64,000 bases of DNA from Somniosus microcephalus (lineage: Eukaryota), in the NCBI GenBank assembly GCA_052327205.1, contig CM126204.1, forward strand, positions 59,024,001 through 59,088,000, given 5' to 3'. The first letter of the stretch is position 1. Each line of letters starts with the position of its first letter. The position numbers and the translations under genes were made by a program. Under the pieces are notes generated by a model. That model searched no databases, had not been told where the DNA came from, and was given only the letters and a program-made list of their open reading frames with translations. Positions 16,671 through 64,000 of this stretch are shown here, one piece after another.

Positions 16671-17008
16671 TAGATCCAGGTTCTGCATTAGTATTGCCAA
16701 CCAATGAAAACTACTGGGACCTCCTGAGGTCGTGAAAGGCGCTATGTAATTGCAAGTTCTTTCTTTCTTTACACACAGTATCCCCAGAAACAGCATGCTG
16801 TAGACTTACATCTATTGTAAATTAACTGCCATTTTACACTATCCAACTATCAGTTGGAACCATTCCATGCAGCTTGCAATTCACTTTCACTGGAAGGTGG
16901 CCTTCCTCTCCTTCTTTGTTGCATTAGTACCCCAATGCCTTGTCAATTCTCCCCATATGTTCCTCAGCTCCATTGCAGCTTCTACCAAACATTCTTCTCT
17001 AAAGGCAG

Positions 17009-24658: not shown

Positions 24659-27600
24659 ATGCCGAAGACTGGCTGTATCACTGCCTTTGATAATACAACA
24701 GAGGACTGGACCTCATATGTGGAAAGAGTCGAGGTATATTGCGAGGCAAATGAAATAGCCGATGAGAAAAAGGCATCGGTATTGCTAAACTTAATGGGCG
24801 CTAGAACGTACGGCCTATTGCGGGACCTGATTACTCCAGCCAAACCGAAGGCAAAGAGTTTTAACGAAATTGTTGCTGTCCTACAGGAACACCTAAACCC
24901 TGCACCGCTGCTGATAGCAGAAAGATTTAAATTCCACAGGAGAACTCAGCATAAAGATGAGAGCAATGCTGAGTACCTTACGGAACTACGCAAGCTATCA
25001 AAGCACTGCCAGTTCGGAGCAGGACTGGCAGATACCCTACGGGACAAATTTGTCTGTGGACTCCTGAGTGAAGGAACACAGAAGAAGTTACTCTCAGAGA
25101 AAGAGCTGATGCTAGATAAGGCTTTCAGCGTGGCAGTATCGTACGAAGCAGCAACCAGGGGAGCTGCAGAAATACAACAAAAGCCACAGGAATACGGCAC
25201 CCACGAAATGACACGGGGATTTGCAAAATGTTATCGCTGCGGCAGAACTAACCATGACCAGAAGGACTGCTGGTCCAAGGACAAAATATGCAGGCAATGC
25301 GGAAAGATGGGACACATTGCATGAGTTTTCAGGTCTGGGAAGAAGACCAGCGACAACAAAAAGGCTACTAAGGAACCGTACAAGAAAGTACAAAGGATGA
25401 TGGACAGTAGTTCCGAAGACCAGATGAGCGATAGTGAATCCGGGAACAAGAGACTAAGCTGTCTCAAACTTCACAATGTAATTGTAAAAGAGGATCACCG
25501 AACCATTTGGGTCACCCTCACGATAGCAGGGTCCCAAGTTAAAATGGAATTGGATACAGGATCAGCGCTAACCGTCATGAATCGATGAGACTACGAGCGG
25601 CTATTCTCACACATACCCTTGAGAGAGACATCCATCGTCTTGACGACATATACGGGGCAAAAAGTATACCCCAGAGGAAAAATAAGGGTGCCTGTCGAAT
25701 ACAACAGCAAGAAAATATGGAAATTGTATCTCTACATACTGCAAAATGGTGGACCACTGTTATTGGGACGTGAATGGATCAGGAAGATAAGCTTAGATTG
25801 GCACTCCATTCATGCAATGACGGTGGATGGTAAAAAAGATGAAGACGTCACTCCTGGACGATTGTCAACAATCTTAGCTAACGCCAAAGAGGTATTTCAA
25901 CAAGAACTGGGCGCTCTTAAAGGCGTAACCGCCTCGATAAAAATAGAAGAGAATGCAATTCCCAAGTTTTTCAAAGCAAGACCGGTACCATATGCAATCC
26001 GCCCAGCCGTCGAGGCAGAGCTAGAGAATCTGGAGAAGGCAGGCGTGTTGTCTAAGGTCGACTGGAGCGAGTGGGCGACACCCATCGTTCCTGTCATGAA
26101 GAAAACGTTAAGCAATAAGTCTGAGGAGCCAAGGAAGGTTCGCATCTGTGGGGACTTCAAGGTGACGGTGAACCCAGTCCTTCACACAGTACAATATCCT
26201 CTTCCAAGGATAGAAGACATCTTCGCCTCACTATCTGGAGGGAAGCGTTTTACAAAAATTGACCTAGCACAAGCATATTTGCAGATGGAGGTTGAAGAAT
26301 CCTTTAGGAAGTATCTCACGATAAACACTCACAAAGGTCTTTACCAGTATCATCGATTGGTATTCGGAGTAGCATCGGCTCCGGCGATATGGCAAGGAGC
26401 GATGGAACAAGTCCTGCAAGGGATTCCGGGGACTCAGTGTTACTTGGACGACATCCTTGTGACAGGTGAAGATGACAGTGAACACCTTAACAACCTAGAA
26501 CAGGTGCTCACTAGACTACGGGAACACGGGCTACGAGCCAACCGCCCCAAGTGCGAGTTTTTTAAGAAACAGATATCGTATTGTGGCCACGTGATTGATG
26601 AAGAGGGGTTACATAAGTCCCCTGACAAAATTGAAGCGGTTGTTAAGGCCCCAGCGCCTGAAAATGTGTCGCAACTGAGGTCATTCCTCGGATTGGTGAA
26701 TTACTACCATAAGTTTTTACCGAATTTGTCCACAATTCTGCACCCACTGAACGCCCTACTACGAACGGGAGTAGCATGGAAATGGAGCAATGACTGTAAG
26801 CAGGCCTTTCAGAAGAGTAAGGACTTAATCACTTCAAGAGAAGTATTGGCTCACTACAACACAGCACTGCCGATCAGACTGGCGTGTGATGCATCTCCCT
26901 ACGGCATTGGGGCGGTACTGTCACGTAAATTCCTTGATGGTTTAGAGAGGCCGATAGCTTTTGCGTCACGCTCGTTAACTTCTGCCGAGCGTAACTATGC
27001 CCAGATTGACAGAGAGGCCCTCAGCCTAGTGTGGGGGGTGAAGAAGTTCAATCACGACCTGCACGGTCAAAAATTTACTCTACTAACTGATCATCAACCT
27101 CTTGTCTCTATTTTCAACCCTCAGAAGGGCGTACCGATAATGACAGCGCAACGGCTGCAGAGGTGGTCCCTTTTCCTAGGGGCACACCAATATGACATCG
27201 AGTACAAAGGAACTAAACAGCATGGGAATGCTGATAGATTGTCGCGCCTACCGTTGCCGACAGTGGAAGAAGACCTTGCAGTGGATCCAATGGAGATATT
27301 CCACTCGACCATAGTCGAATGTCTCCCTGTGACGAATGCAAACATAGAAAAGGAAACACGAAATGACCCGACACTCTCCTGGGTCTATGATTTAATGGGG
27401 AAGGGATGGCCAGCACATGGTGAACCACTGCTGCCAGCATTCTCGCTGAGAAGAGAAGAACTGTCAGTGTGCAGAGGAACCTTGATGTGCGGATCCAGAG
27501 TAGTAATTCCACCCAAATTGCAGGACAGAGTGCTCAATGAGCTTCATGAGGGTCATCTGGGAGGGGTAAAAATGAAGAACTTAGCCAGAGCGTTTGTGTG

Positions 27601-29758
27601 GTGGCCGGGAATCGATAGAGAAATCGAAGAGATGACCAAGAGCTGTACAGGATGCCAGAAGTTCCAAAACGCCCCACCACAAGCTCCTCTACATCCATGG
27701 GAGTCGCCCTCACCTCCATGGCAAAGGGTGCACATTGATTTTGCTGGTCCCTTCATGGACTCGATGTTTTCAATTGCGGTGGATGCACATTCAAAGTGGC
27801 CAGAGGTAATAAAAATGTCCTCAACCACCACAGAAAAAACTATCACAGTTTTACGAACCATATTCGCCAGGAATGGGCTGCCTGAACAGATTTGCTCTGA
27901 CAATGGACCACAGTTTGTGTCTGAAGAGTTCCGGAGGTTAACATAAGAACATAAGAACATAAGAACTAGGAGCAGGAGTAGGCCAATCGGCCCCTCGAGC
28001 CTGCTCCGCCATTCAATAAGATCATGGCTGATCTGATCCTAACCGCCAATCCACTATCACAGAACCATCTCCTGAATCTAACAGAATTAGACACACGAAA
28101 TAGGAGCAGGATCAGGCTACACGGCCCCTGGGCCCGATCCGCTACCCACAGGGGCATGACCGATCCGAACCTAGACTCATGTTCAAATTCCTGCCCGCTC
28201 CCCGTAACCCTTAATTCCCTTTACTTCTAGGAAACTGTCTATTTCTGTTTTAAATTTATGTAATGATGTAGCTTCTACAGCTTTTTGGGGCAGCATATTC
28301 CATGGACCTACCACCCTCTGAGTGAAGTAGTTCCTCCTCATCTCAGTTTTGAAAGAGCAGCCCCTTATTCTAAGACTATGCCCCCTAGTTCTAGTTTCAC
28401 CCATCATCGGGAACATCTTCCCCGCATCCACCCGATCCGACCCCTTCACAATCTTATATGTTTCAATAAGATCGCCTCTCATTCTTCTGAACTCCAATGA
28501 GTAGAGTCCCAATCTACTCAACCTCTCCTCATATGTCCATCCCCTCATCCCCGGGATTAACCGAGTGAACCTTCTTTGTACTGACTCGAGAGCAAGTATG
28601 TCCTTTCTTAAGTATGGACACCAAAACTGTACGCAGTATTCCAGGTGCGGCCTCACCAATACCTTGTACAACTGAAGCAATACCTCCCTATTTTTATATT
28701 CTATCCCCCTAGCAATGAAAGCCAACATTCCATTGGCCTTCTTAATCACTTGCTGCACCTGCATACTAACCTTTTGAGTTTCGTGCACCAGGACCCCCAG
28801 ATCCCTTTGTACTTCAGTACTTTCCAGTTTCTTGCCATTAAGATAATAACTTGCTCTACGATTTTTCCTGCCAAAGTGCATAACCTCACACTTTCCAGTA
28901 TTGTATTCCATCTGCCAAATCTCTGCCCACTTACTTAGCCTGTCGATGTCCCCTTGCAGGTTTTTTATGTCCTCCTCACTCACTACTTTCCCTCCCATCT
29001 TAGTATCATCTGCAAACTTTGATATGTTACACTCGGTCCCCTCCTCCAAATCGTTAATATAGATTGTAAAGAGTTGGGGACCCAGCACTGACCCCTGCGG
29101 AACACCACTAGTTACTGATTGCCAGTCTGAGAATGAACCATTTATCCCAACTCTCTGCCTTCTGTTAGATAGCCAATCCTCTATCCATGCCAGAATATTA
29201 CCCCCAATCCCGTGATTTTTTATCTTAAGCAATAATCTTTTGAGTGGCACCTTATCAAATGCCTTTTGGAAGTCTAAATACACTACGTCCACTGGTTCCC
29301 CTTTATCCACCCTATACGTGGATTTGGTTAAGCCAAATGTCCGAAGAGATGTGGAGAACAGGCAGTTTCAGAATATGAATGAAAGGCCGACCAGGAGTTT
29401 TAAGATAGGTCAACCAGTTTTGGCCCGGGACTACCGCACTGAGGAATGGCAGCCAGGAACGATTTGTACATGGCAAGGACCTCTCATGTATACCGTGGAC
29501 GTTGGAGAGAGCATTGTAAGACGCCATGCTGACCAGATTCTAGAGTCACTGGAAAACGTCAACTCCACACCACGATCTGATACACCTGGCAATGAAATCG
29601 ACGTACCAATTGCAGCTACCGCAGAATCGGTGATATTGGAAGCAGATGAACCAAACAACGACATGGATCCAGACTCAACCTTGCCAGAAGAACCTGATAT
29701 TCCAAAGAGGCGTTATCCAGACAGAATCAGGAAGCCTCCTCAAAGACTGAACTTATAA
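24659..29758 (+). pseudogene. gag-pol of B2 (stops at 25322 and 25586, CR1 insertion in integrase)
   Basis: ORF pieces 24659-25324, 25397-25588, 25619-27946, 29240-29758; YLDD, HIDFAGP, ends PPQRLNL. Confidence 0.92.
27941..29318 (-). mobile_element. 5'-truncated CR1 LINE
   Basis: ORF 28183-29310 YLDFQKAFD, GVPQGSVLGP, FADD; (acataaga)n tail at left end. Confidence 0.95.
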
Positions 29759-38684: not shown

Positions 38685-39828
38685 TTTCAAATAAAACTGT
38701 TGGACTATAACTGGTGTTGTGTGACTTCTTACATTAGCTCACCACAGAATAGCTTCTTGGGCAGTCTATTATCAGGCATTCAGACTAAGTGATCAGCCCA
38801 CCTTAGCTGCACCATTACTAATCATTGCCTCTATGCCTGGCATACTTGCTCTTCTGAGGACCTCCTGAGAATCTTATACCACCATTGAATTTTCATGATC
38901 TTCCTGAGGCAGCCTAGTTGGAAGTGATTGAGATTCTGATGTGGCAACTGTAAGTGGTCAAGCTATCACACACTAAGGATGTTATAAACTATTGCCTTGT
39001 AGACCTTAAGCTTTGTTGCCAGTTTGATGTCCCTTTCATCCCACAACCTCACACAGAGCCTTCCAAAAGCATTACTGGCTTTAATCAATCATGTGGTTCA
39101 CCTCTCCATCTAGGAGCGCATCACGTAACATGGTGCTTCCTAGGTTGGGGAACATATCCACTGTAGACAGCGTGTGCCCTTCAATGGCGATATTAGGTGG
39201 CACATAAGGTTTTCCAGGTTTTTTCAGACTGATAGTGAGGCCAGATTTCTTACAAATGTAAGAAGTCACACAACACCAGGTTATAGTCCAACAGTTTTAT
39301 TTGAAATCACAGGGGGAGAAATTTGGTTGTTAGCGCCACCGATTAACGCCTAAAGAGGCTGAGAAGTGGGCCGCCAATTTCCGGGCGGGCGCAGGGCGCC
39401 TAGTGCCTCGCCCCATATTTAGCATGCATTTAGCGCCGGCGCTAAATCTTAGCGCCCGCTCATGGGCGCAGGCTGATTATGATGTCATTTGAGTGTGCAA
39501 CACCTTTTGGGCGCCCCGGACCAGAAATTCAGTGGCGCCCCCCTCCGTAGCGCCTGGCGCTAATAGTGACAGCTTACCTGGACCTTACCAAGTCGCTCTC
39601 GGGCTGGAGGAGTGTTATTTAAAGGGAACTCGTGTGGGTTAAAAGCGGCAGCCATTTTTGGAGCACAACTTCCTCGAGAGCTACTAAGAGTTGCTGAGCT
39701 GCACACTGAGAGTCATTTGACCACTGAGCCAGCGCAGGCAGACGATCTTCAGCCTTCTGGCCATTACCTTGCTGTTGGTGAGCCTTGACAATGGGGAACC
39801 TTCCTATGGGCACTTATTATGGGGGCTG

Positions 39829-42800
39829 TGTTGTGTATGTACCTTTAAGGGAATAACTGGTCTTAGACTGCAGTACCGGCAGTGACCACCCCTGTATGAA
39901 AGGCCCTAGCAGGCTTCTGTAGTTTCAGTTTCAAGCTGCCTCTTGTTCAGTAAAGTACCTGTTAAACTGTTCTCCCGAAGTCCATATATTATTGAGGCGC
40001 GGACTTTACAGTGGCGACGAGTAAGTTCGAACTCACCTGCAGTGTGGCATCATCTCACGGGGATCTCGCCTGAAAGGAAGGTCCTGGAAGGTCGTAGTCT
40101 GAGCAACGGGCGTCGACCGAGGGCAACCGCCCAAAGAATCCATCGGTGTTTGGAGAATTGCGGGAGAGACTGTGGTTCCAGCGAATCGTGCTGGTAGCAG
40201 GTAGCGCGCTGACCCTTCGGGACTGCGGCGGGCTCAAGCTTGATTGAGCGGCTCTACAAATCAGGCCGCGCAGTGTCGCCGGGAAAAGAAAACAAGAGAG
40301 AGAGGGTGGAGCGCACAGGGCGCGGTCGGTGCTTGAGAACAGGACAGCGGAGAGAAACTAAACGGGGGGGAAGGAAAGCGAGACGCGCCGAAGCTGCGGT
40401 TCGCCGCCATTACCCTGGAGAACGCTAGGAGCAGCGTGGCAGTAAGGGGAAGAAGCAAAAGTGCGGGAGGCACCATTTTATCCCATTGGGGAAGAAGCAA
40501 AAGTGCGGGAGGCGCCATTTTATTCCATTGGGGAAGAAGCAAAAGCGCGGGAGGCGCCATTTTAAATCGCCCAAGATGCCGAAAAGTGGCAGTATCACTG
40601 CTTTCGACAACGAGGTAGAAGACTGGACCACGTATGTGGAAAGAATTGAAGTGTACTGCAAGGCAAATGAGGTGGCTGATGGAAAGAGGGCGTCGGTATT
40701 ATTAAATCTGATGGGTACGAGTACGTACGGCCTATTGCGGAATTTAATTACCCCAGCTAAACCAATGGAGAAAAGTTTTGAGGAGATTGTTCATATCTTA
40801 CAGGAACACCTAAGCCCTACACCACTGCTGATAGCAGAAAGATTCAAGTTCCATAAAAGAAACCAGCACAAAGATGAGAGCAATGCTGACTATCTTACGG
40901 AACTACGCAAGTTATCGAAGCACTGCCAGTTCGGAGCAGGACTGGCAGACACCTTACGGGATAAGTTTGTCTGCGGGCTCCAGAGTGAAGGAACCCAGAA
41001 ACGACTACTTTCAAAAAAGGACCTGACGCTAGAACAGGCTTTCAGCCTGGCAGCATCCTACGAAGCAGCAGCACGGGGAGCTGCGGAAATACAACAGAAA
41101 CCACAAGAATACAACGCTAACGAAATGGCGTATGGAGCCGAAAAGTGCTATCGCTGCGGCAGAACAACCCATGAGCAGAAGGACTGCTGGTTTAAAGACA
41201 AAATATGCAGGCAATGCGGGAAAATGGGACATATAGCAAGAGTCTGCAGGTCGGGAAAGAAGACCAACATGACAAGAACTACTAAGGAAAAGTACAGGAA
41301 AGTAATGAAACTGACAGATAGTAGTTCAGAAGATTAGGAGAGTGATAAGGACTCCGGGAGCAGGCGACTAAGTTGTTTAAAGTTACACAACGTGATCGCA
41401 AAGAAGATCACCGAACCATTTGGGTCACCCTCATGATAGCAGGGTCCCCAGTGAAGATGGAATTGGACACAGGATCAGCCCTAACTGTCATGAATCGACG
41501 AGACTATGAGCGGCTATTTTCACACATACCCTTAAAGGACACGTCCATTGTATTGAAGACATACACGGGGCAAAAGGTCTACCCCAGAGGAAAAAGAAGG
41601 GTGCCAGTTGAATATAACGGAAAGGAAACACAGAAACTATACATGTATATACTACGAGATGGAGGACCACCATTATTGAGACGTGAATGGATCCGAAGAC
41701 TACAATTGGATTGGCATTCCATTCTGGCACTAACTGTGACTGACAAAAAAGATGATGACGTCGCACCTGGACGTCTGTCACAAATTCTATCTGACGCGGA
41801 AGAGGTGTTCCAACAAGGACTTGGGACTCTAAAAGGAGTAAAGGCAACCATAAAGATTGAGGATAACGCAACCCCAAAAATTTTCAAGGCCAGACCGGTG
41901 CCATATGTGATACGCCCAGCTGTGGAAGCTGAACTGGAGAGTCTGGAGCGTTTGGGGGTGCTGTCTAAGGTGGACTGGAGCGAGTGGGCCACACCCATCG
42001 TTCCTGTAATGAAGAAAGCATTGAGCAGCACGCCTGGGGAGCCAAGGAAGGTTCGCATCTGTGGGGACTTCAAGGTGACTGTGAACCCAGTCCTGCACAC
42101 AGTACAGTATCCGCTTCTGCGGATAGAAGATATTTTCACCTCGCTATCTGGAGGGAAACGTTTTACAAAGATTGACTTGGCTCAAGCGTATCTACAAATG
42201 GAGGTGGAAGAAGCATCTAGGAAATACCTCACGATAAACACTCACAAAGGCCTTTACCAGTACAATTGACTGGTATTTGGGGTAGCATCGGCCCCGGCTA
42301 TGAGGCAGAGGGCAATGGAACAAGTCCTGCAAGGGATCCCGGGGACCCAGTGTTATTTGGATGACATCCTGGTTACGGGCGAAAATGACAATGAACAACT
42401 TGCCAACCTGGAACAGGTGCTCATGAGATTGCAGGAATATGGGCTACGAGCCAACCGTCCCAAATGCAAGTTCTTCAGGAGACAAATCTCGTATTGTGGC
42501 CACATGATTGATGAGGAAGGGTTGCATAAGTCGCTGGACAAGATTGAGGCTGTAGTCAAGACTCCAGCACCAGAAAATGTGTCGCAACTGAGGTCATTCC
42601 TCGGGTTGGTGAACTACTACCATAAGTTCTTGCCGAATTTATCTACAATTCTGCACCCACTGAACGCCCTCCTTCAATCTGGTGTAACATGGAAATGGAG
42701 TGATGAGTGTAAGCGTGCCTTTCAGGAATGTAAATGCCAAATCACTTCAAAAGAAGTATTGGCCCACTACAACCCAACACTACCGATTCGGTTGGCATAT

Positions 42801-44817
42801 GATGCGTCACCTTACGGCATTGGAGCGGTGCTGTCACACAAATTCCGTGACAGTTCAGAGAGGCCAATAGCCTTTGCATCGCGCTCGCTAACCTCAGCCG
42901 AGCGTAACTACACCCAGGTTGACAGGGAGGCCCTCAGCCTGGTGTGGGGGGTGAAGAAGTTCAATCACTATCTGCACGGGCAGAAATTCACCCTACTGAC
43001 TGATCATCAACCCCTGGTCTCAATTTTTAACCCAAAGAAGGGCGTTCCGGTGATGACGGCGCAACGGCTGCAAAGATGGTCACTTTTTCTAGGGGCACAT
43101 CAGTATGACATAGAGTACAAAGGTACGAAACAACATGGAAACGCTGATGGGCTGTCGCGCCTACCGTTACCTACGGCGGAAGAAGCACCGCTGTGTGGAC
43201 CCTGTGGAGATATTCCATGCGACCATAGTCGAATGTTTGCCTGTTACAAACGCAAGTATTGAGAAGGAAACCCGAAATGACCCGACACTCGCTCGGGTCT
43301 ATGATTTGACGGTGAAGGGATGGCCAGCATATGGCGACTCACTGTTGCCAGCATTCTCGCCAAGGAGGGAACAGCTGTCAGTGTGCCGGGGAACCTTGAT
43401 GTGTGGATCCCGAGTGGTAATTCCACCCAAGTTGAGAGATAGAGTACTCAATGAGCTTCACGAGGGTCATCTGGGAGGGGTAAAACTGAAGAGCCTAGCC
43501 AGGGCGTTTGTGTGGTGGCCGGGAATCGATAAAGAAATCGAGGATATGACCAAGAGATGCACAGGATGCCAGAAGGTCTAAAATGCTCCACCACAGGCCC
43601 CGCTACATCCATGGGAGTGGCCCTCATCTCCATGGCAACGGGTACACATTGATTTCGCTGGTCCATTTATGGACTCAATTTGCTTTGGACGCCCATTCGA
43701 AATGGCCAGAGGTCATTAAAATGTCCTCCACCACCACGGAGAAAACTATTGCAGTCCTAAGAACCATTTTCACCAGGAATGGGTTGCCAGAACAGATCTG
43801 TTCCGACAATGGCCCACAGTTTGCGTCTGAGGATTTCCGGAGGTTCCTGAAGAATAATGGGGTGAAACATTACACATCTGCCCCATATCATCCAGCCACA
43901 AATGGATTGGCTGAGAGGTTTGTTCAGACCTTTAAAAAGGCCATAAAGGCAATGTATAATGACGATATACCACTGCAATACAAGGTGGATAACTTCCTGT
44001 TTGCTTACCGGAATGCAACACATGCAATAACCAACCAAACTCCAGCCGTACTGTTTTTTAACCGGAGACTAAGGTGTCGCTTGGATTTGCTCAAACCAAA
44101 CATAAGACAAGATGTTGAGGATAAGCAGTTCCAGCACATAAATGAGAAGCCAACCAGGAGCTTCAAGATAGGGCAACCAGTCTTGGCCCGCGACTACCGA
44201 ACAGAAAAATGGCAGCCAGGCACAATATGCACACAGCTGGGACCACTAATGTACACAGTGGATGTTGGAGAGAGCATCATGAGACGCTATGCTGACCAGA
44301 TTCTAGAGTCACAGGAACAAGCCAAACCTGTACCACAAGCATGTGCACCTGGTAATGAGCCCGAAGTACAGATTGCGTCTACCTCAGAAGCAGGGGTATT
44401 GGAAGCTGACGAACCAACCAATGACAATGAGCCAGAATGACTCCAGCGCCAGAACAGGATACTCGAGAAAGGCACTATCCAGTCCAGATCAGGAAGCCTC
44501 CTCAAAGACTGAACTTATAAATGACTATTTCAGTTGATATATATATTACTGAGAAAATTGTAATTCTAATTGTAATTAGTTATTATTTAGTTGTTAAATG
44601 AATGTTATGTACTGTTTATCTAAAATGGGAGGAATTGTTGTGTATGTACCTTTAAGGGAATAACTGGTCTTAGACTGCAGTACCGGCAGTGACCACCCCT
44701 GTATAAAAGGCCCTAGCAGGCTTCTGTAGTTTCAGTTTCAAGCTGCCTCTTGTTCAGTAAAGTACCTGTTAAACTGTTCTCCCGAAGTCCGTGTATTATT
44801 GAGGCGCGGACTTTACA
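39829..44817 (+). mobile_element. Gypsy LTR retrotransposon B3 (Mag-like), defective
   Basis: 182-bp LTRs 39829-40010 and 44636-44817 (about 3 differences); TSD ggctg; PBS tggcgacgag at 40012. Confidence 0.96.
40576..44520 (+). pseudogene. gag-pol of B3 with stops and frameshifts
   Basis: ORF pieces 40486-41337, 41373-42269, 42300-43262, 43135-43581, 43583-44440, homologous to B2. Confidence 0.92.
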
Positions 44818-47977: not shown

Positions 47978-49864
47978 AATACTAAATGCTGAACTAACGT
48001 TAAATATGTGGAAACATTAAAGAAAACTCTGAAAATATTGAATACAAATCAAAATGATTCATTCACAATCCACTTTCCGCATCCCCAATGCTACTTAATG
48101 TTAAAACTATTTTTCTTTACGCAAGAAAAATTGATGTTCCATTATGACCAACCTGCTTCGAAAGTATTTCCATCTTTCAACAAGTAATTCATACAATTTA
48201 TCTTTTTGACATCACCGCCGACTGCCAACACCAAAACAACAGGAGTGTCTCAAATCCAGCCTAGGCGTTGGGCCCATTTTCCTTCACAGCCCGTCCAATA
48301 TCTGACAGGCCAGGGGTCATACAAAACTGACAACATGACAACTATCACAGCATACAAATCCTAGTTCATTCAAGGGTGATCTGTGGCATACAATGTGGTT
48401 TCATAAGTTTGTCACTTTTGTAAACACTTAACCAGACGTTAAACCTCTTTTTTAAACCATAAAATCAATTGCCATTTGTATAACCAAGCTACTACACCAT
48501 TGGTAGTTGTAGTGTATGTACCCGTCTACCTTTAAGGGAACTATTGAATGTAACCGTTCACCTTTAAGGGAACTACTTTAGGTGTGGCACTATTTGTTTG
48601 GCTTCTGTATACTGTAATACCGATAGTGACCACACCAGTATATAAGTGTTGTAGCAGGATTTCTGGGGCAGATTCGCCCTGACCTCTGAATAGTAAAGAC
48701 CTGTTTGTTTGTACTTCAAAAGTCTGTGTATTTATTTACTGCACAACCCACAGACTTTACAGTGGCGACGAGTCCGATCGTACCCTGCGGCAAGATTACC
48801 AAAGCAAGAAGAGCGTCGAAGAGAGGCAACCGCCCTCGTCGTGCTGCTGGAAGAAAACACGAGGCTGCAGCAGGAGTAGGGTGTAAGACTTTAGCAACAA
48901 AAGCTTCCATTAGCAACAGGCACTGACTACCCTTCTACCACGGTGCGGAGTGAGCCGATCAGCAGGGAACAAGGCGGCCGAAGAGACTGTGAGTAGGGGA
49001 AGGTGTAGAGAACATCCGGAGGATAAGGGCAGAGCACTCGACCTCGGTCGAGGGGGAGCTGTGCCGGCCAAAAGTCGGGTCCAACGGCATCGGGTGACAG
49101 CCGGACCGCGATCGGCGGGAAAAATCCGAGCAGCGACCGCAGCCACAAAGCGCTGAGCCTGCGAGTAGGCGCGGGAAGAGAAACCCAGCCGCAGCCGGGG
49201 AGGGAGACACCGGTCTGCGAGAGGGCTGGGGAGGCGAACGGGAACCGTGCGGGTGAGAGCCGGGTGCGGAGAGAGAGACTGCGAGGAGCCAGTCCAGCGG
49301 CTGAGCTGTTCTCCACCAACGGGGTACTCAGAACCGGCAAAACCGAACGTGCGGGAGTGGGTGAGAGACACAGCCGAAAACGGGGTGAGAGACTGCTCGA
49401 GAGCCAGTCCAGCGGCTGAGCTGTTCTCCACCAACGGGGTACCCAGGGCCGGTAGCACCGAACGTGCGGGTGAGAGAGCGACAGAGCCGGGTACGGAGAG
49501 AGAGACTGCGCGAGAGCCAGTCCAGCGGCTGAACTGTCCTCCGTTAACGGGGTGTACCCAGCGCCGGTAGAGCCGTGTGGGCGGGAGGAAAAGACATAGC
49601 CGAGTAAGGGGAGCTGTGCGGAAGCCAGCCAGCGGCTGAACCTGTCCGCTGTGGGGGAAGCGTACCCCTTCCACCGGGAAGAAACGCGGGAAGCCGCCAT
49701 TAGACGGAGAAGACGCCAGAAGCGGGAAACCGCCATTGAAGTGGGCGGGGCGAGAAAGGAAGAGCGGGAAACCGCCATTTTCGCGGGAAAACCGCCATCT
49801 TAGAAACAAACAAATAAATAAGAATACTTAAAGAAATACTGGTGCTGCTCCCAAGGGAAGAAAA

Positions 49865-52800
49865 ATGCCTAAGCGAGGGAATATTAACGACTTTAATTCT
49901 GAAATAGAAGACTGGGCCACGTACGTGGAACGCATCGAGATCTATTGTGAAGCCAACAAAATAGAGGAAGACGACAAGGCGATAACATTGTTAAACTCGA
50001 TGGGCGCAAAGACATACGGGCTCTTGAAGGATTTACTAGCACCAGCTAAACCGGCGGATCAGTCTTTCGAAGAGATTGTGGTTTTCCTGAAGGACCACTT
50101 GAACCCCACACCGTTGATGTTGGCTGAACGATTCAAATTCTATGCAAGAACGCAACGGAAAGACGAAAACAACGCAGAATACTTGGTCGAACTGCATAGG
50201 CTAGCGAAATACTGCCAGTTCGGAGGGAATCTGACAGAGGCACTGCGAGACAAGTTCGTAGGCGGATTGTCCAAGGAAGGGACGCAAAAGCGCCTACTAG
50301 AAGAGAACGACCTTACACTTGACAGGGCTGTCCTTATAGCCGCATCACACGAAGCCGCAGCGAAAGGAACGGCGGAAATGCAACTAAAGGCGGCGGCGCT
50401 CGGGGTGGACCAAATTACCTCGAGTACAACAAAATGCTATCGTTGTGGGAAGACAACACACAACCAGAATCAATGCTGGTTTAAGAACCAAGAATGTAGG
50501 AAATGTGGCAAACTGGATCACATCGCTAAGGTATGCCGGTCAGGGAAGAAGACCAACAACCAAAGGAAGCCATCACAAGAAAAGGACAACAAGGTATACA
50601 AGGGGGCTGAGAAGAGTTCAGACGAACAGAATCCAGACTCAGATCCAAACGGCCAGGAGCTGGGTAGTCTGAGTATCCACCATGTGAGTAAGGAAGCTGA
50701 CCTACAAACTATCTGGGTCATGCTAAAAATAGCTGGAGTCCAAGTGAAAATGGAGTTGGACACTGGATCAGCTGTATCAGTCATAAATCGAGGGGATTAC
50801 CACCGGCTATTCTCACACATACCCTTAAGAGATACCGGGCTGAAAATTCAGTAGGGTTAGCGCCCCATTTGAGGCGCTAGAGGGCCTTGCGCCGGAGTTA
50901 TGGCCGGTTTGTAAATTCAGTGGGGCCCTGCCATCGGCGTTAGACCGGTTGCGCTGCGCCGGCACCGATGACGTCATCGGTGTGCGCAGCGTCCCGGTTG
51001 CCGTGGTGACGGGCCCCAACGCCGAAATTGAGTTGCGGCCGCCTCGCCCGTGGCAGCCGCAACTAACGATGTTTCAGCAGAGTCCTACGCGAGTTAGCGC
51101 CGGCGCATTAAGGTCGCGCGGCGGCCGGCCGCTTTCCCACCGGCCGCCTGCCCGCACCTCCCTCCCCGGACTCCTCCACCCCCCCGCCGCGGAACAGATG
51201 CGTCTGGCCTGCGAGCCCGGCACTTCTCCGAGGTGCCGGGCTCATTTTTTTCAAGATTTCAACGGCCAGCGGGCGGGTGCAGGCAGCTCCTCCTTAACTG
51301 AAGGAGGAGGCCTGCACTTCCCCAGCCTGCCGCACCGCATCGGGTGCCGCAGCGCCGGAATTGCGCCGCAATGCGGCAGTCAGCGCCCATTTCGAGGCGC
51401 TGACACCCTCCTGTAGCGCCGGCAGCCGTTTGGGCGCGGCGCTACTGAATTTTTGGTGCGCGCAGGGGGACTTAGCGCCGGCGCTAAATTTCCGGCGCTA
51501 AAGCCCTGGCGCGGCGCCAACTGAATTTCTAGGCCACCAAGTTCGTATTGCAGACATACACGGGGCATAAAGTATACCCCATGGGAAAAATAAGAGTCAA
51601 GGTGAGAGATAGGGGTAAAGAACACCCAAGAATGAACTTGTATGTACTACATGAGGGAGGACCACCACTTCTAGGATGGGAGTGGATCAAGAAAATAGAC
51701 ATGGAATGGCACTACCAACAAGCAATGACGAGTGAGGACTCGGTGCAGACAAGCAGCTCAGACTCTGAGCCAGAAGACGATAAGTCCAGCCCACGTATGA
51801 AAAACAAGGTTAACATGAACTCACTGACTAAGGTTGGAAAAACGATGGCGTGCATAAAGACAGAGAATTCTGAGTCTGTTCAAGTCACAGACATATGCAT
51901 TACGGAGGAACACCGAGCTCGAACTCAACGTTATTTCAAAGTACGACAACAATTCGAACAATTAAGTTACCGTCTCGTACAGGAGATGAAAACAATGAAA
52001 AAGTTCTATGACACCGAATGGGAGAGTCTGGAAAGACAACAGAACCTGCTGGCTCAAGCAGAGAGCGACCATAGAGCCATCGTGACCAATTACCGATCAC
52101 ACCTCCCTTATGATGTTCAGGAGTTAGAATATTTGCATGATCTAGAGATACAGCATAAAGGCAAACCACGCTACACTGAGGATTTTGTTCTGCAATTAGA
52201 GACGGAGCTAGTGCAGGCAAGGTTAAGAGAAGCTGAATCGCAGTGTGCACTTAAAGAGATGCAGAAAAAAATCTTGGACATGGAAAAGAGAAACGCTTCT
52301 TTACCTGATGTGAATAATGTGGCCATGTTGCAAGAGGAGCTTATCACTCAGTTAAATGAAAATAAAGGGAAAATGACTGAGATAGACTGCAAGAATAAAG
52401 AAGATTTGATGGCAGTGAGACTTCAAGAGGCAGATAGCATAGCAGCCTTGGCTGAACTCCAACAGGAAATTGCGAAAGAAGCAAATGAAGAGGAATCTTC
52501 AGGAAGCCGGGATTTTATTCCAGTTCTTCTCTACGACTCCTTACAAGCAGAGTGTGAGAAGTGGAAAGAACAGTATGAACAGGCCCAGGCTACAATTCTG
52601 GAGGGGATTAACTCGGCAACCTCCGAAAAGCTAGTTTCAGTAGAAGCATATGAACAACTAAAGGTTGAACATGAGCAAGAAGTCCAAAGGCTGCAGGAAA
52701 TTCTTGATGAGCTCAAGGCCAAGACAGACTCATCGGTAGAAGTTCCATCCATAGGTGAGAATTTAGCGGTGAAAGACATGGCAGAACATGAAAGACAAGA

Positions 52801-53737
52801 TGTCCAAGAACTCATAAAAATATTGGAGGAAACCCAAGACAAATATGAGGCGGCAATGACCGAGGTTCAACAACTTGAAGAACAGATTCAACTGGGAATC
52901 CTTTCAGTGGAAGAACAGGACACTGTAAGAACGGTCCCTAAACATGAACTAGAGAGCATCAGGGCGCAACTTTTCCGAGCGCTGAAAGCCAAAGTTCAAG
53001 AGGAACGTAAGGTGGAAGTATTGGAGAAAGAGGTGGAGGAAATGGAGAAGACTCTGATCCACCGTGTTCCCAGGGAAGAGTTAACGGTCAGCCAACTCCT
53101 TCATATGCTGAAGGACAAGACTCTGCAAGGGGAACAATCTGAACACGAGCTTCAATCTTCAGGGGGAACGAGTTCGGAGCTCTCAAAGGTCACGGAGATA
53201 GCTGAGGTGGCAACACAAATTTTACAAGGATGCCAAAAGTACGTTGAATCACGTCAAGGTGAACAGAAGAATGTGGAAACCGTTACTTCAGTAGAAGGAT
53301 TAAATAGCCTGATACCGCAATCCCCGGTGGAAGGGAAGGTATTGAACTCACAAATGAGGTCAGTAGTGAAGGAATGGCAGACAACCCAGGAAGAGTGGGA
53401 TGAATATGAATGCATGAAGAAGTCTTTTCAAGAAAGATGTCTAGGGAAGGAACCACCGTCAGCTAACGTCCAGACGGGTGAGGAGGAAGAAGAAGGCTCT
53501 CTCGCTGGCCTAACTCAGGACGAACCCGAATATTACCATGACCTGTTGAGTGACACTGAATATTGCGAGGATGTGGCCTGCCCAGCTTGTGATGAAAACT
53601 CCCAAAGTGCTGAAATCCGGAGGAAGCACTTAAGGTCTAAGGAACATAGAGAGTTGGTGGCGCTACAGCTGGCAGCCGAGAAAGGAGCTCCGAGAGTTTC
53701 AAAAAGGCAGAAAAGAAAAAGAAGAAGCAGAAGATAA
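49865..53737 (+). CDS. Gag-protease-coiled-coil mosaic fusion (1056 aa after removing the MITE)
   Basis: ORFs 49865-50854 and 51548-53737 are in one frame; excising 50837-51538 gives HIPLRDTKFVLQTYTG, colinear with B1 HIPLRDTEIVLKTYMG. Confidence 0.85.
50837..51535. mobile_element. PIF/Harbinger MITE, 699 bp, inserted in the protease of D
   Basis: TIRs gggctgaaaattcagt...actgaatttctaggcc; TSD acc at 50834-50836 and 51536-51538; dense agcgcc motifs. Confidence 0.9.
51947..52042 (+). other. STK10: Captured STK10/SLK-like coiled-coil fragment
   Basis: QQFEQLSYRLVQEMKTMKKFYDTEWESLERQQ resembles recalled STK10 [31 protein letters not shown]. Confidence 0.65.
52169..52474 (+). other. EVI5: Captured EVI5-like coiled-coil fragment (internally deleted)
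   Basis: EDFVLQLETELVQARLREAESQCALKEMQ...LQEEL and TQL...EIDCKNKEDLMAVRLQEADSIAALAEL resemble two separate recalled EVI5 segments. Confidence 0.85.
52478..53080 (+). other. ANKRD24: Captured ANKRD24-like (RAI14/UACA family) coiled-coil fragment
   Basis: IPVLLYDSLQAE resembles recalled ANKRD24 IPLALYDSLRAE; a family C-terminal motif HRAIVTNYRSHL.Y.VQ also occurs at 52037-52120. Confidence 0.6.
53480..53665 (+). other. DNAJC21: Captured DNAJC21-like C2H2 zinc-finger fragment
   Basis: CPACDENSQSAEIRRKHLRSKEHRELVAL resembles recalled DNAJC21 [29 protein letters not shown]. Confidence 0.65.
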
Positions 53738-54208
53738 TAACTGTCTAAAATATTAGCACTTCTACCATCTCAGGCGGAACACTACGAAAGGAGCTAAATT
53801 AGTTGAAAAACTGGAAAATGTCAAGACAGCCAGTTGGTTGTAAAAGTCCGCACTGCTGGTTCAACAGGACGAAAGTTCAAGCTGCTACGTCAAGAAAAAG
53901 GCTATGGAGGAGTCACGCTAGCCAGGTGAACCGGCTACCCCAAAGAAATGTTGTTCGGAACGAGTCAAGATCAGAGACTGAATCTATGAACTGTTTCCGC
54001 AGAGACGGAACCTGTGAACTGTTTCCACCGAGATTATATTTGTAAATTGTTTTATATGACATTGACTCCACCGAGATTATAGCTGTAATTTGTTTTATAG
54101 GAAGTTGAAGATATGTATGTTTAACGGGGACTCTGTAAGTAATAAGCTAAAAAGGGAGGATTGTAGTGTATGTACCCGTCTACCTTTAAGGGAACTATTG
54201 AATGTAAC

Positions 54209-54294
54209 GATAGCAAAATACTGCAGATGTTGGAAATCCGAAATAACAACATGTTGCCTGACTTGCTGAGTTTTTCCAGCATTTTCTGTTGTTA
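54209..54294. mobile_element. 86-bp inverted Penelope-terminus insertion in the 3' LTR of D
   Basis: 13-bp TSD tattgaatgtaac at 54196-54208 and 54295-54307; sequence matches both termini of 2318-3310; absent from the 5' LTR. Confidence 0.88.
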
Positions 54295-54824
54295 TATTGA
54301 ATGTAACCGTTTACCTTTAAGGGAACTACTTTAGGTGTGGCACTATTTGTTTGGCTTCTGTATACTGTAATACCGATAGTGACCACACCAGCATATAAAT
54401 GTTGTAGCAGGATTTCTGGGGCAGATTCGCCCTGACCTCTGAATAGTAAAGACCTGTTTGTTTGTACTTCAAAAGTCTGTGTATTTATTTACTGCACAAC
54501 CCACAGACTTTACAGTAGTGTCATGCAATTACTTTTTCCTTGAAATAGAAAAGAATTGATGTAACATTTAAAACAACTTGTGGATCCGACTGATTGTGAC
54601 AAATTTGTGAATTTGTTCCTCATTTTATGTCATTGGATCTACGTAATGTTTGGAAAATGTGTTGCACCAGTAATGGCATCCTTTTTTCTCTTTATGCTTC
54701 CAGAGAAAGGCTCCAGTTAAACAAAAATTCTGTACCTGCAAGTGAATCCTTTTCTGTGGAAAAAGTCTGAAATATAAAAAGTTGATCCCACATCTTTCTG
54801 CATGACATGCACTGATGTTTGTCA

Positions 54825-59603: not shown

Positions 59604-62600
59604 TGTGGTGATTATTCCTTGTTTAGTAAAAGTATTGTGATTGGTTGTTTGTTAACTGCCTTGGGATATATGTTGTAATCTCATTGGTAGTTGATGTCAC
59701 ATGATGTGTGGTGGCCACCTTAAATTCAGTTCTTTTCCAGCTTTGGTTGGGACTAGATGTGCTGCAGATTTTAAAGTTAATAAAGCCTAGTTTTGGAAGG
59801 CAAACCTATTCTTTATTTCAATTTATTAACTTTATGTTAGAATGGAGCGATATCTTCAACCAGAACGATTCAAGGCTGACCCCAATTCTGCTGGAGTGGA
59901 TGATAAATGGAAACATTGGTATTGTACATTTAAAAACTTTTTGGGCGTGTTGGATCAAGAGCCTCTAAATAAGCTGAATATGCTGATCAACTACATTGCT
60001 CCGGATGTATATAAATATATTTTGGACTGTAAAACTTATGAAGTGGCTATTTCTACATTGGAAAAGATTTTAGTTAAACCAAAGAATGAGGTATTTGCAC
60101 GTCACCTTCTATCTGCCCATAGGCAGCAGGTGGGAGAATCATTGGATACTTATTTACAAGCACTTCGGTGCCTTAGTGTTAACTGTAATTATAAGGCCGT
60201 GACGGCTGAAGAATATAAGGAAGAATCGGTACGGGATGCTTTTATTAATGGATTACTGTCTAGATCAATTTGTCAGCGGTTGTTAGAAAATAAGACTTTG
60301 GATCTTAAAAGTGCTTTTGAGCAAGCTTCTACATTGGATGTGGCTCAGAGAAGTTCAGATTCTTATGCTCTTTTTAATCGGCCTGCGACTATGGTTTCGG
60401 CAGTTTCGGATGAAAAGGAATTATGTGGACTTAATGGGAGTGGTTTACTAGATTCTGAAACAGTTTCTACTTCGGCGGCTGTTGCCTCTAGGATTCAGAA
60501 GTGTTATTTTTGTGGGAATATCCGGCACCCTCGTCTGAAGTGTCCTGCTCGGGAGGCTGTGTGTAGTAAATGCGGCAAGAGAGGTCATTATGCACGCGTG
60601 TGCAAATCATCAGGTTCAATTACCTCCTCCTCTCCTGGTGTGGGAGGGCCCTCCTCTACCACCTCCTCCTCTGTGACTATTCAGCCTTTAGATAGGGCGT
60701 TTATTGCATCAATTTCTGCTGCATTTGCTCATGGCCTAAACAAAGCTATAGTTACGGCTCAAGTTAATGGGTTGGAAGTGAAGGCCCTTATAGATATGGG
60801 CAGTACTGAGAGTTTTATAAGTCTTCAGTTTGCGAAGGAGAAGTATTTGAAAATTTCACCTGTTACGTATCAGGTGTGTATGGCTCAGACGACCCTTACT
60901 TCACAAATAGCTGGTTGTTGCTTTGTGAAAATGATTCTTCTAGGTAATACGTATACTGATATACGCCTATCTGTTTTGCCTAATCTCTGTGCGGCTATTT
61001 TGATTGGTCATGATGTGCTTCAGTTACACGAGTCTCTTAGTCTTTCATTTGGAGGGACTAAGCCACCTTTATCTATTTGTGGATTAACCTCTTTATCCAT
61101 TTCTCCATTATCACTTTTTTTCAATTTGATGCCGGATTGTAAGCCAATTGCTACCAAGTCAAGAAGATATAGTAGTCAGGATAGAGAATTTATTAATTCT
61201 GAAGTTCAACGTCTCTTATTGGAAGGAATCATTGAACCTAGTTGTTCGCCTTGGCGAGCACAGGTAGTTGTCACGACTAACGAGAGACACAAGAAACGAA
61301 TGGTGATAGACTATTCCCAAACTATTAATAGGTATACTCAATTAGATGCGTACCCTTTGCCTAAGATTGATGAGCTTATCAATAAAGTATCTCCGTATAA
61401 GGTTTTTAGCACTATTGACCTAAAGAGTGCTTATCATCAGATTCCTATTGTTAAGAAGGATCAACCATATACGGCCTTTGAGGCTGGTGGAAGGCTGTAT
61501 CAGTTTTGCCGAATACCATTTGGTGTTACTAATGGTGTTGCTTGTTTTCAATGGGCAATGGATGCTTTTATAAGTGATAACTCCCTCTCTGACACCTTTT
61601 CATACTTAGATGACATCACAGTGTGTGGCAAATCAAGGGTGGAGCATGATTCTAATTTAAAAAGATTCCTTCAAGCTGCGGAAAAAGTTGGTTTAACTTT
61701 TAATAAAGAGAAATGTATCTTTTTGACTACTGAGGTAAATCTATTGGGGTATATTATCTCGGGAAACAAGATTAAACCAGATCCAGAACGTCTGCGACCA
61801 TTGATTGATTTACCTTGTCCTACTAATTCTAAGGCTTTGCAACGAGTTGTTGGACTGTTTTCTTATTATTCTAATTGGATTGCAAATTTTTCACGGAAGA
61901 TCCGGCCTCTTATTCAGGTTACGACATATCCTCTATCATGGGAGGCCAGGACATGTTTTGAGAATTTTAAAAAGGATATTTTAGGAGCAGTTGTGCATTC
62001 TATTGATGAGCAGGTTCCTTTTGTGATCGAGACGGATGCTTCTGATTTTGCAATTGGGGCTACTCTGAACCAAAATGGAAGACCTGTGGCCTTTTTCTCA
62101 CGTACTTTGAACAATAGTGAAAAAAGACATTCTTCAATAGAGAAAGAGGCATACGCAATAGTAGAAGCATTGCGTAAATGGAGACATTATTTATCGGGGC
62201 GACATTTCACGTTAGTAACTGATCAAAAATCTGTGCCCTTTATGTTTGATGTTAAACATTTTGGAAAGATCAAAAATGATAAAATAATGAGATGGAGGAT
62301 TGAGTTGGCATGTTACCATTTTGACATAGTTTATCGTCCAGGGAAGGATAATGTTGCTGCTGATGCACTGTCGAGGGCTTATTGTTCTGTGATTCACGGA
62401 GATACGCTTATTAATCTTCACAATGCCTTATGTCATCCTGGGGTTACGAGGATGATACACTTTGTACGCAGTAAGAATTTGCCCTTTTCAGTTGAAGACG
62501 TCAAGCGGATGACTTCATCATGTTCTATCTGCGCTCGGTGTAAACCGAATTTCTTTAAGCCTCAACGAGCTCATCTTATAAAGGCTACTTCTCCTTTTGA

Positions 62601-64000
62601 ACGTTTGAGCGTCGATTTTAAGGGGCCTCTTCCTTCAACTAATCAAAACTGATATATTTTTACTGTTGTGGATGAGTTTTCAGGGTTCCCTTTTGCTTTT
62701 CCTTGTGCAGATGTATCAGCTGCTACAGTTATCAAATGTCTGACTCAACTTTTTGTCATCTTTGGGATGCCTGCGTATATCCATTCGGATCAGGGAAGTT
62801 CTTTTATGTCTTCCCAGTTGAAGGAATACCTTCAGAGTCGGGGAATTTCTACTAGTAGAACTACCCCGTATAATCCCCAGGGTAATGGACAGTGCGAACG
62901 ATACAATGGGGTGATCTGGAAGGCAGTTATGTTGGCTTTGACATCCCGGAACCTTAAGAATACACAGTGGGAAATGGTACTGCCTGATGCCCTGCATTCC
63001 ATTAGATCATTGCTTTCAACGGCTACTAATGTGACCCCCCATGAAAGGCTCTTTAACTATCCACGGAGATCTACTACGGGATATTCAGTACCTTCATGGC
63101 TTACTATGCAGGGACCTGTGCTGCTTCGACGCCATGTTAGATTGTCAAAATATGATCCTTTAGTGGAGGAGGTGGAGCTGTTGGAGGCAAATTCCCAATA
63201 TGTTCATATTCGATTCCAAGATGGGAAAGGAAGTACTGTTTCAATTAAAGACTTGGCTCCTTGTGGTGGCCAGCCCTCTTCTGAGGATATTAACAATAGT
63301 CATGATTTAGATAATGTGGATGCTGTTACAGATACTACGAATGTCTCCAATCCGATTGCAGATAATTATACTTCTATTAGTCAGCCCTTGATGGATGTTT
63401 ATGACCGTCCCAGTTTACCTTCTGATGGGATTTCTAATCCGGAAACCGTTGAAAATCGGGATATGGATAGCCTTCTTGCTGAAGATACTTCTGTGCCTTC
63501 TGGTGTGGGAGGGCAAGGAATTTCACCAAGGTTAAGAAGGTCGACACGAACAAGATATCCGGTCGACCGATTGAAAATGGACTTTTAAATTGATAGTAAT
63601 GTTTTAAAATTGTTGTAATATTATATTATATTGTTTTAGTTGAGAGATACTTAATACTTATGTGCAATGTTATTATTTGTTGTTGTTCACTTAGTATTGT
63701 GTCATGTAAACAGTTTTACTCTTGTTGTGCATAGTTTTAGTTGTAAATAATTAATTATAAATTGTAAAGGTTATTTAGGTTGGAGTATATTTTAAAAGGA
63801 GGGGTGAATGTGGTGATTATTCCTTGTTTAGTAAAAGTATTGTGATTGGTTGTTTGTTAACTGCCTTGGGATATATGTTGTAATCTCATTGGTAGTTGAT
63901 GTCACATGATGTGTGGTGGCCACCTTAAATTCAGTTCTTTTCCAGCTTTGGTTGGGACTGGATGTGGAAAGATGTGCTGCAGATTTTAAAGTTAATAAAG
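59604..64000 (+). mobile_element. Gypsy LTR retrotransposon E (same clade as A); 3' LTR runs off the window
   Basis: 5' LTR 59604 to about 59820; 3' LTR from 63809; PPT aaaaggaggggtgaa 63794-63808. Confidence 0.95.
59842..63588 (+). pseudogene. gag-pol of E with a single in-frame stop (62650-62652)
   Basis: ORFs 59842-62652 and 62668-63588 share a frame; SPWRAQVVV, YLDD, ETDASD, VDFKG/HSDQG/QCER. Confidence 0.93.

Follow-up and report, generated by a model that had tools for sequence, protein, structure and literature searches.

A non-autonomous Gypsy family in a shark genome whose coding cargo very probably derives from spliced and, in part, circular host RNAs

We analysed a 64,000-nucleotide stretch of Somniosus microcephalus DNA (assembly GCA_052327205.1, contig CM126204.1, positions 59,024,001 to 59,088,000; hereafter the window). 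The element at 48508-54514 of this window belongs to a large, very abundant non-autonomous Gypsy family of long terminal repeat (LTR) retrotransposons that has kept gag and protease and in which the segment for reverse transcriptase (RT), RNase H and integrase is replaced by spliced host exons, here called the cargo. We consider it very probable that this lineage was founded by, and has repeatedly captured, spliced host RNAs, including circular RNAs (circRNAs), by template switching. The evidence for circles comes from three of the six donor genes tested, in which the element joins a downstream splice donor exactly to an upstream acceptor, as in a back-splice. Since exon order is scrambled exactly at splice sites and two of the captures have a one-turn geometry, these three captures were most likely templated by circular RNAs.

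The window element is itself a non-autonomous Gypsy LTR retrotransposon: LTRs, target-site duplication, primer-binding site and polypurine tract are present and RT and integrase are missing, yet copies have transposed. Its parts are as follows (strand in brackets where assigned).

48503..48507: target-site duplication GTAGT, left copy (right copy at 54515-54519)
48508..48761 (+): 5′ LTR of 254 nucleotides (nt), TG...CA, sharing 75% identity across 167 nt with the LTR of B1, a pol-bearing sister element
48763..48772 (+): primer-binding site TGGCGACGAG, directly after the 5′ LTR
48773..49864 (+): GC-rich leader that contains imperfect tandem repeats and long frames lacking a Pfam match
49865..50836 (+): gag (ATG 49865, two CCHC knuckles) and the N-terminal half of an aspartic protease (DTG at 50759)
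50837..51535: non-autonomous terminal inverted repeat (TIR) element (miniature inverted-repeat transposable element, MITE), 699 nt, GC-rich, with imperfect TIRs, a 3-nt duplication ACC and a stop at 50852
51536..51729 (+): C-terminal half of the protease and the last pol-derived codons
51730..52051 (+): pieces of three host exons (79-85% identity) left, after erosion, from the founding STK10/SLK-type kinase capture; weak PKK match
52055..52137 (+): ankycorbin-like, complete 66-nt penultimate coding exon with a back-splice at 52120/52121 into the large upstream exon, of which the first 17 nt follow
52138..52473 (+): EVI5, a circle of five exons and 678 nt, present as one full turn (back-splice 52153/52154; entry and exit TTGC), with later in-frame deletions
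52474..53081 (+): continuation of the large coiled-coil exon of the ankycorbin-like gene, which matches the host DNA at 90.6% over 631 nt
53075..53490 (+): optineurin exons in linear order, 78-92% identical to the host; frame shifted and restored at ~53230-53265; right end approximate
53500..53733 (+): piece of a spliced host gene with a C2H2 (jaz-type) finger, for which two exons were located in the host; the left end is approximate
53735..54145 (+): stop codons, then a 3′ untranslated remnant of the kinase-circle end and integrase tail
54146..54161 (+): polypurine tract, before the 3′ LTR
54162..54514 (+): 3′ LTR with a 99-nt insertion (54196-54294) resembling a short interspersed element

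The original prediction, made from the letters of the window, had described an LTR element whose pol is replaced by an in-frame mosaic of host gene fragments fused to Gag-protease. Much of that outline stands: GTAGT lies on both sides, the primer-binding site follows the 5′ LTR, the polypurine tract precedes the 3′ LTR and gag has its two knuckles. The LTRs had been called intact; they do form a TG...CA pair with 3 mismatches across the aligned LTR, but the 3′ copy is interrupted by the 99-nt insertion. The protease is present but split, and because the 699-nt insertion adds the stop at 50852, gag-protease is not fused to the cassette in the window copy; the fusion is open in 23 of 29 other copies. 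Neither this insertion nor the 99-nt one figures in the original prediction. Downstream, the frame at 51533-53734 runs for 734 codons without a stop. Its first ~65 codons are the C-terminal half of the protease (57% identical to that of the sister element B2), and the remaining ~670 gave no RT, RNase H or integrase match in Pfam; as had been claimed, they are of non-retroelement sequence where B1 and B2 carry these three domains. Reads and contigs skip the MITE, which we take to be Harbinger-like; a relative at L019:3781-4472 has the 3-nt duplication TGA in place of ACC, and the MITE is very deep in DNA contigs. We assume that the primer-binding site is that of tRNA-Ser; no tRNA genes were found within the window.

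The ankycorbin-like junction joins the 66-nt penultimate exon, followed in the host by GT, at 52120/52121 to the first base of the large exon ~11.5 kb upstream, which the host precedes with a pyrimidine tract and AG. The EVI5 cargo opens on the final 16 nt of a downstream exon; at 52153/52154 it passes to the acceptor of an exon ~45 kb upstream, traverses the intervening exons and ends at the same TTGC where it began; TTGC also occurs in the ankycorbin exon and is the EVI5 insertion point. What had been listed as two EVI5 pieces is a single capture shortened by in-frame deletion, because sister subfamilies retain 48 additional EVI5 codons. The window copy thus retains two of the three back-splice junctions; the kinase junction, lost from the window's branch, can be read in the sister element L057. 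There the kinase piece starts inside a 675-nt exon, passes three more exons, joins the last donor (GT next in the host) to an exon start 6.5 kb upstream (AG before it) and returns to its own start, overlapping it by 14 nt; identity across the seven segments is 98-100%. The overlap motif resembles B1's RT start on entry and B1's integrase tail on exit, and the frame runs on into the integrase tail, from which we conclude that one turn of the circle took the place of RT-RNaseH-integrase. Within the captured kinase circle, one exon (L112, the host kinase gene) ends at a GC donor, in a GC-AG intron.

The three circles measure 1245 nt (kinase), 1743 nt (ankycorbin-like) and 678 nt (EVI5), all multiples of three and all stop-free. 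Two of the captures, kinase and EVI5, comprise exactly one turn with entry and exit at the same microhomology, and all three pieces map solely to exons between acceptor and donor, with no host sequence from beyond the circle. The junctions are shared within the family: the kinase junction word was found at all 29 loci of elements retrieved with the PKK domain and at 12 of 30 retrieved with the jaz finger, the ankycorbin and EVI5 words at 29 of 29 and 9 of 9 loci in their respective groups, and element-derived RNA reads carry the same back-splice junctions.

Donor exons were located in the same genome for the ankycorbin-like gene (C13:62.86 Mb), EVI5 (C3:347.97-348.01 Mb), the STK10/SLK-type kinase (C8:167.19 Mb), optineurin (C17:85.88 Mb), the finger gene (C1:4.79 Mb, a unique pattern match) and a gene with titin/obscurin-like immunoglobulin (Ig) domains (C5:24.72 Mb; 24.716-24.728 Mb), the last for a cargo found in sister elements. 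Introns are missing at the exon joints of all six; the templates were therefore spliced RNA. The optineurin, finger and Ig pieces (three of the six donors tested) are colinear with their host exons and could have come from linear or circular RNA. The Ig cargo was considered as a fourth circle and rejected on account of this colinearity. The host origin proposed for the blocks is borne out (E values of 1e-74 for ankycorbin and 1e-41 for EVI5, 79-98% DNA identity to exons of the same genome), and four of the five gene guesses hold: STK10/SLK, the ankycorbin family, EVI5 and a DNAJC21-like finger, the last name being tentative. The fifth, an ANKRD24-like coil at 53075-53436, is optineurin. The kinase is named by type (STK10/SLK) and not by paralogue; the paralogous kinase at C8:2.2 Mb was rejected as donor, with no match to the cargo. 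An intron-less copy of the kinase C-terminal exons at C3:354.66 Mb (L031), with no element match, is an ordinary processed retrocopy.

Cargo residues 60-165 and 590-734 could be identified only through better-preserved sister subfamilies, because word-seeded protein searches with these residues gave no matches. Protein searches with the full cargo returned host ankycorbin and EVI5 relatives and no full-length element protein (one search spans 403-1285 residues only), PDB searches with the window cargo gave nothing useful, and two ESM Atlas searches gave scores all below 0.9, which we treat as leads only. We take the jaz-type finger donor to be DNAJC21-like. No DnaJ domain was found near the finger exons at C1:4.79 Mb, the nearest being at C1:2.67 Mb on the downstream side, and no exon upstream of the finger exon was found within 10 kb; for these reasons the name is tentative. 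The finger exons and this nearest, two-exon DnaJ domain are 2.1 Mb apart and in the wrong order for one gene, and may represent separate genes, a duplicate or an assembly issue. A PF21884 match was rejected as finger donor since it is a different gene, presumably DNAJC2-like.

Could linear templates explain the scrambled order? The original prediction had invoked template-switch capture of co-packaged mRNAs. Capture of spliced host RNA by template switching, at short shared sequences, stands, whereas at least three templates were most likely not linear mRNAs, exon order being scrambled exactly at splice sites. If all cargo came from linear mRNAs, the scrambled junctions would be RT switches between two copies of one mRNA. 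Three donors are indeed colinear, most capture junctions bear evidence of template switching at short stretches of shared sequence (4-14 nt of shared microhomology at those read) and CAG is common to exon ends. However, each of three independent junctions coincides exactly with a GT donor and an AG acceptor, and two captures begin and end at one host position, which is not expected from two linear switches; we regard this explanation as very improbable. Linear RNAs with already scrambled exons, made by trans-splicing or from a host tandem exon duplication, would also yield exact donor-to-upstream-acceptor junctions, and a passage of PMC4897178 warns of other sources for non-colinear junctions. 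Only a single copy of the large ankycorbin exon was seen, however, in ~65 kb of its host locus, so that no local tandem duplication is present there, the kinase and EVI5 exons are single copies in the host stretches examined, and a one-turn geometry follows from a circle, not from a linear dimer. We judge such templates improbable. Three points nonetheless weigh against a role for circles: the three circles were not themselves observed as RNA; half of the tested donors (optineurin, jaz finger, Ig) kept linear order, which means that circles were not the sole templates; and the CAG shared by exon ends includes the ankycorbin upstream exon, a small microhomology that could guide a linear switch.

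Circular templates suggest the following sequence of events. The lineage would make its own Gag and protease and borrow RT and integrase in trans from B1-like relatives. Circular RNAs would be co-packaged in the particles, and an RT copying B1-like RNA would jump, at the start of the RT region, to a circular RNA of the STK10/SLK-type kinase, go once round its 1245 nt over the back-splice junction and jump back at the integrase tail, guided at both ends by the same short host motif. The limit of one turn may arise because RNase H has by then cut the template behind the RT. Later captures inside the cargo would have brought in, depending on the branch, the jaz-finger piece, optineurin, Ig domains or a myosin-tail coil; the window's branch would have taken up part of the ankycorbin-like circle and then, within it, a full EVI5 turn, and in-frame deletions would have followed. 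The open frame would be kept by cis selection on each replicating RNA.

The pol-bearing relatives lie in the same window. B1 (17003-22144), B2 (~23800-28100) and B3 (~39800-44800) are Gypsy elements that encode gag and pol in a single frame, interrupted by stops in all three, and Pfam places protease, RT, RNase H and integrase in Gypsy order in B1 and B2. By both the gag tree and the similarity of its LTR, B1 is the closest relative of the cargo family; its RT family is a young one (3432 candidates; all 40 scored matches at 99-100%). A tree was built from a 528-nt gag/protease stretch of 28 rows, midpoint-rooted, with B3 excluded as too short and B2 on a long branch. All 26 cargo-bearing rows form one clade (100/98) beside B1; kinase-only forms lie near its base without resolution, and 12 ankycorbin/EVI5 rows sit on a long nested branch (100/100). 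The length of that gag branch (0.18, with kinase-only subfamilies within ~0.02 of the base) suggests that the window's lineage has been through many more replication rounds than they have. Surviving intermediates include the ankycorbin joint without EVI5 (52137-52474/6), seen in RNA and DNA, a longer EVI5 piece, and kinase plus finger only. These intermediates and the nesting of the modules give the same order of events as the tree: the kinase circle came first, followed by a deletion, then the finger and optineurin, next the ankycorbin circle and after it the EVI5 circle, and last further deletions. Membership of the Mag clade is partly supported: two CCHC knuckles in gag and a single gag-pol frame are present, features that we take to be Mag markers and for which a literature search gave no support. 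Two further Gypsy elements in the window, at 10001-13948 (-) and 59830-63588 (+), are unrelated; one has an unbroken 1315-codon gag-pol frame and the other a single internal stop.

Other LTR-flanked copies, for which the original prediction had proposed a search, are numerous in the host genome (6.45 Gb; best host-protein matches to sharks and rays) and lie on many contigs, with differing target duplications and junctions in frame. Candidate counts given here are first-look numbers, neither copy numbers nor a census, and the loci fetched are the best-scoring rows. A DNA search with the cargo gave 4788 candidates; the 40 scored yielded 41 rows, 38 of which cover the entire query, and the 37 besides the window itself match at 93-95%. 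Among the 29 best non-self loci, 23 have a single unbroken frame of 1060-1073 codons from gag through cargo and six are broken; the MITE in the protease is absent from all 29. Both LTRs were present in 19 of 20 copies fetched whole, and the pairs in these 19 show at most 41 differences in 4807 columns, a figure that one extra base per locus inflates slightly. Of the 18 sister copies that could be parsed, 16 are flanked by exact, mutually different 5-bp duplications.

Searches with the Pfam PKK domain (16,568 candidates, 150 scored) and the jaz finger (21,271 candidates, 150 scored) each identified sister elements at 29 of 30 fetched loci. These have gag, protease and LTR similarity in common and differ in cargo, which is either a long kinase piece alone or kinase plus Ig domains, a myosin-tail coil, optineurin or finger. 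One subfamily (L051, L050, L052, L053 and others) carries three whole and two partial titin/obscurin-like I-set domains in frame; another (L131-L134, L138, L143) a Myosin_tail_1 coil of ~215 residues, presumably from CGNL1. A longer optineurin capture of six exons, absent from the window's branch, occurs in L141, L145-L149, L151, L155, L156 and L159 and contains what we take to be an LC3-interacting-like motif; optineurin in the sister subfamilies is 96-98% identical to the host. L033, L036 and L048 (~780-1260 in L048) have an extra in-frame piece directly after the protease with a CxxC...HxxxC motif and a stretch that we assume to be KMT2A-like, including a Taspase1-type cleavage motif. At L101:535-2610, RT sequence of the long interspersed element (LINE) type is inserted in frame into gag, giving a 692-codon gag-LINE frame. 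Family members also lie within or just beyond the ankycorbin-like donor gene (L086:1678-3666, L087, L088), one of them antisense in the intron between two exons of the ankycorbin circle; given the copy number, this is probably chance.

Selection on the fusion protein, as originally proposed, is supported for gag-protease and not shown for the residues of the cargo. Across six subfamily representatives, the ratio of nonsynonymous to synonymous substitution rates (dN/dS) was 0.07-0.21 for gag-protease in 14 of 15 pairs (the exception, a very close pair, gave 0.51) and 0.11-0.26 for the protease alone in all 10 pairs; the segment with gag and the N-terminal protease half gave 0.07-0.23 between subfamilies. 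These values place gag and protease under strong purifying selection. Cargo dN/dS was 0.39-0.66 in 14 of 15 pairs and 0.93 in a very close pair, and simulated neutral means were 0.57-0.75 with wide ranges; given this overlap, residue-level selection on the cargo is weak or unproven. Cargo dS is lower than gag dS in distant pairs, and cargo modules are exchanged between gag backbones.

Selection on the cargo seems to favour an open frame more than particular residues. Between the window cargo and the true host exons there are 116 differences and not one stop, where ~5% of random substitutions create stops and ~6 would be expected if all 116 fell on the element side. In seven representatives, every insertion or deletion that separates host and element within the ankycorbin and EVI5 pieces is a multiple of three, and the frameshift in the optineurin piece (~53230-53265) is compensated. 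Single insertions accumulate stops and frameshifts (6 of 29 broken; 4 of 28 with insertions or deletions that are not multiples of three); constraint is visible between subfamilies and not within single insertions. Several points tell against selection for an open frame: part of the 116 substitutions may be host-side; loci came from protein and Pfam searches as best-scoring rows, which favours open frames; the frame stops before the kinase/integrase tail in the window's branch; and, from composition alone, ~55% of the microhomologies of at least 8 nt that these RNAs share are in phase, which means that in-frame junctions need less selection than a chance of one in three would require. An open frame due merely to young, phase-biased captures, with no selection, would draw on the last of these points and on the ascertainment, as well as on the kinase, optineurin and Ig pieces that are 96-100% identical to the host in several subfamilies. 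Against it, the kinase piece of the window's branch is 15-21% diverged from the host with no stop, and the multiples of three, the compensated frameshift and the decay of single insertions all speak for constraint. We give this alternative little weight.

A rival view of the open frame is that the cargo protein has a specific job, such as dimerising the precursor, steering particles on Rab/autophagy routes or acting as a dominant-negative decoy, for which coiled-coil scaffold donors were selected. The donors are nearly all coiled-coil or scaffold proteins, the cargo ratios lie below 0.67 in 14 of 15 pairs, the ankycorbin exon compared with the host gives 0.12-0.44, the protease is conserved and modules move between gag backbones. 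Yet those cargo ratios fall within the simulated neutral range, modules are freely deleted or replaced, even by Ig domains, the optineurin stretch is read in a shifted frame before the original one is restored, and purine-rich coil-coding RNAs share microhomologies that would bias capture without selection. A specific job is possible, but we lean against it. As to what an open cargo does, we see an even chance that it is a tolerated in-frame spacer carrying translation to near the 3′ LTR and escaping nonsense-mediated decay. That it serves as a generic dimerising coil, replacing RT/integrase in protease activation or particle assembly, is doubtful; some other reason for the open frame is rather unlikely, and a specific decoy more unlikely still.

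The family is transcribed in sense in one RNA run. With reads aligned to 49832-54150 at 90% likeness, 21,307 of 16,654,260 reads of run X23 fell on the element, strongly one-stranded over gag and cargo (depth 200-805 for the sense-indicating mate and 9-62 for the other) whereas coverage of the MITE was low and showed no strand preference. Of the cargo's sampled words, 33-68% were present in ten runs that carry three organism labels, and contigs of X1 and X4 cover 30 of 30 bins. Element reads are pooled from many copies, and where the cargo is best preserved, host mRNA can contribute to the depth. Other aspects of these data weaken the case: strand bias was weak in RNA run X24 (16,540 of 14,396,404 reads), and the RNA runs, which carry organism label B, may come from a related species (2,531 of the 21,307 X23 reads are at least 99% alike). 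A long open frame and transcripts abundant in one run might also be expected if the locus were a domesticated host gene built from the element. However, the window copy is broken in its protease and 3′ LTR, there are thousands of candidates with differing target duplications, and the constraint is not inside single insertions, and we find domestication barely credible.

A bolder version of capture from circular RNA, which we put forward only tentatively, is that particles may routinely package host circRNAs, copy exactly one turn and splice it into the gag-protease frame. Stop-free, phase-preserving circles would survive, the family would act as a germline exon-shuffling engine, and the coils would functionally replace RT/integrase in the polyprotein. 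The preserved entry point, back-splice junction and exit point do point to template switching inside LTR particles, which is testable. The family may serve as a fossil record of germline circRNAs in cartilaginous fish and offers a vertebrate transposon performing serial in-frame exon shuffling on a scale of thousands of copies. It also carries a warning, as in shark data these copies will look like circRNA reads and like paralogues of host genes.

Several known systems share parts of this biology. TR-GAG and other plant gag-only LTR elements, like the shark family, have their own gag and borrow RT and integrase; to our knowledge, host-exon cargo is not part of their definition. Transducing retroviruses with gag-onc fusions are likewise defective, helper-dependent and carry host exons in frame with gag; the shark family differs in having no env that we could see, in germline amplification, serial capture and circular templates, and in showing no sign that one host activity is retained. 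Maize Bs1 is an LTR element with pieces of three host genes in a chimeric expressed open reading frame (ORF), as described in part of PMC13317346, where circular templates go unmentioned; it is a plant element, whereas ours is a vertebrate Gypsy with a retained protease and radiating, interchangeable cargos. LTR-mediated retrocopies are reported in PMC5131818 from fly, mosquito and zebrafish as well as chicken, mouse and human. As there, the shark family has intron-less host sequence in place of internal ORFs, microsimilarity at switch points, both LTRs kept, several parental genes, additional rounds of retroposition and sense transcription. The PMC5131818 cases are few-copy, the older ones mostly lose their frame (14 of 21) and the word 'circular' is absent from its main text; the shark family has a gag-protease under purifying selection, thousands of candidate copies and at least eight accreted donors.

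CircRNA-derived pseudogenes, such as the 33 high-confidence copies of mouse circRFWD2, arise by a mechanism that "remains mysterious" in the words of one passage of PMC4897178. According to the portions of that paper describing them, they share with our family a non-colinear exon junction as signature, the lack of a poly(A) tail, LTR sequences nearby and tens of copies. Like the copies so described, the shark captures have a reversed junction at true splice sites (three of six donors) and nothing from outside the circle; unlike non-coding decayed copies, they are open with gag-protease in 23 of 29 sisters. They further show entry and exit on both circle and element, three circles in series, two of exactly one turn, and a coding frame shared with gag. 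Of the copying of circRNA back into genomes, left unexplained in those portions of PMC4897178, this lineage most likely preserves three events, with entry point, back-splice junction and exit point, and their intermediates. Gene capture by LTR elements and circRNA pseudogenes are already known, each separately. Our literature search, which did not extend to Repbase, Dfam, subscription journals or supplements, found no report of the shark family, nor of a coding LTR element that amplifies and captures circRNAs serially and in frame.

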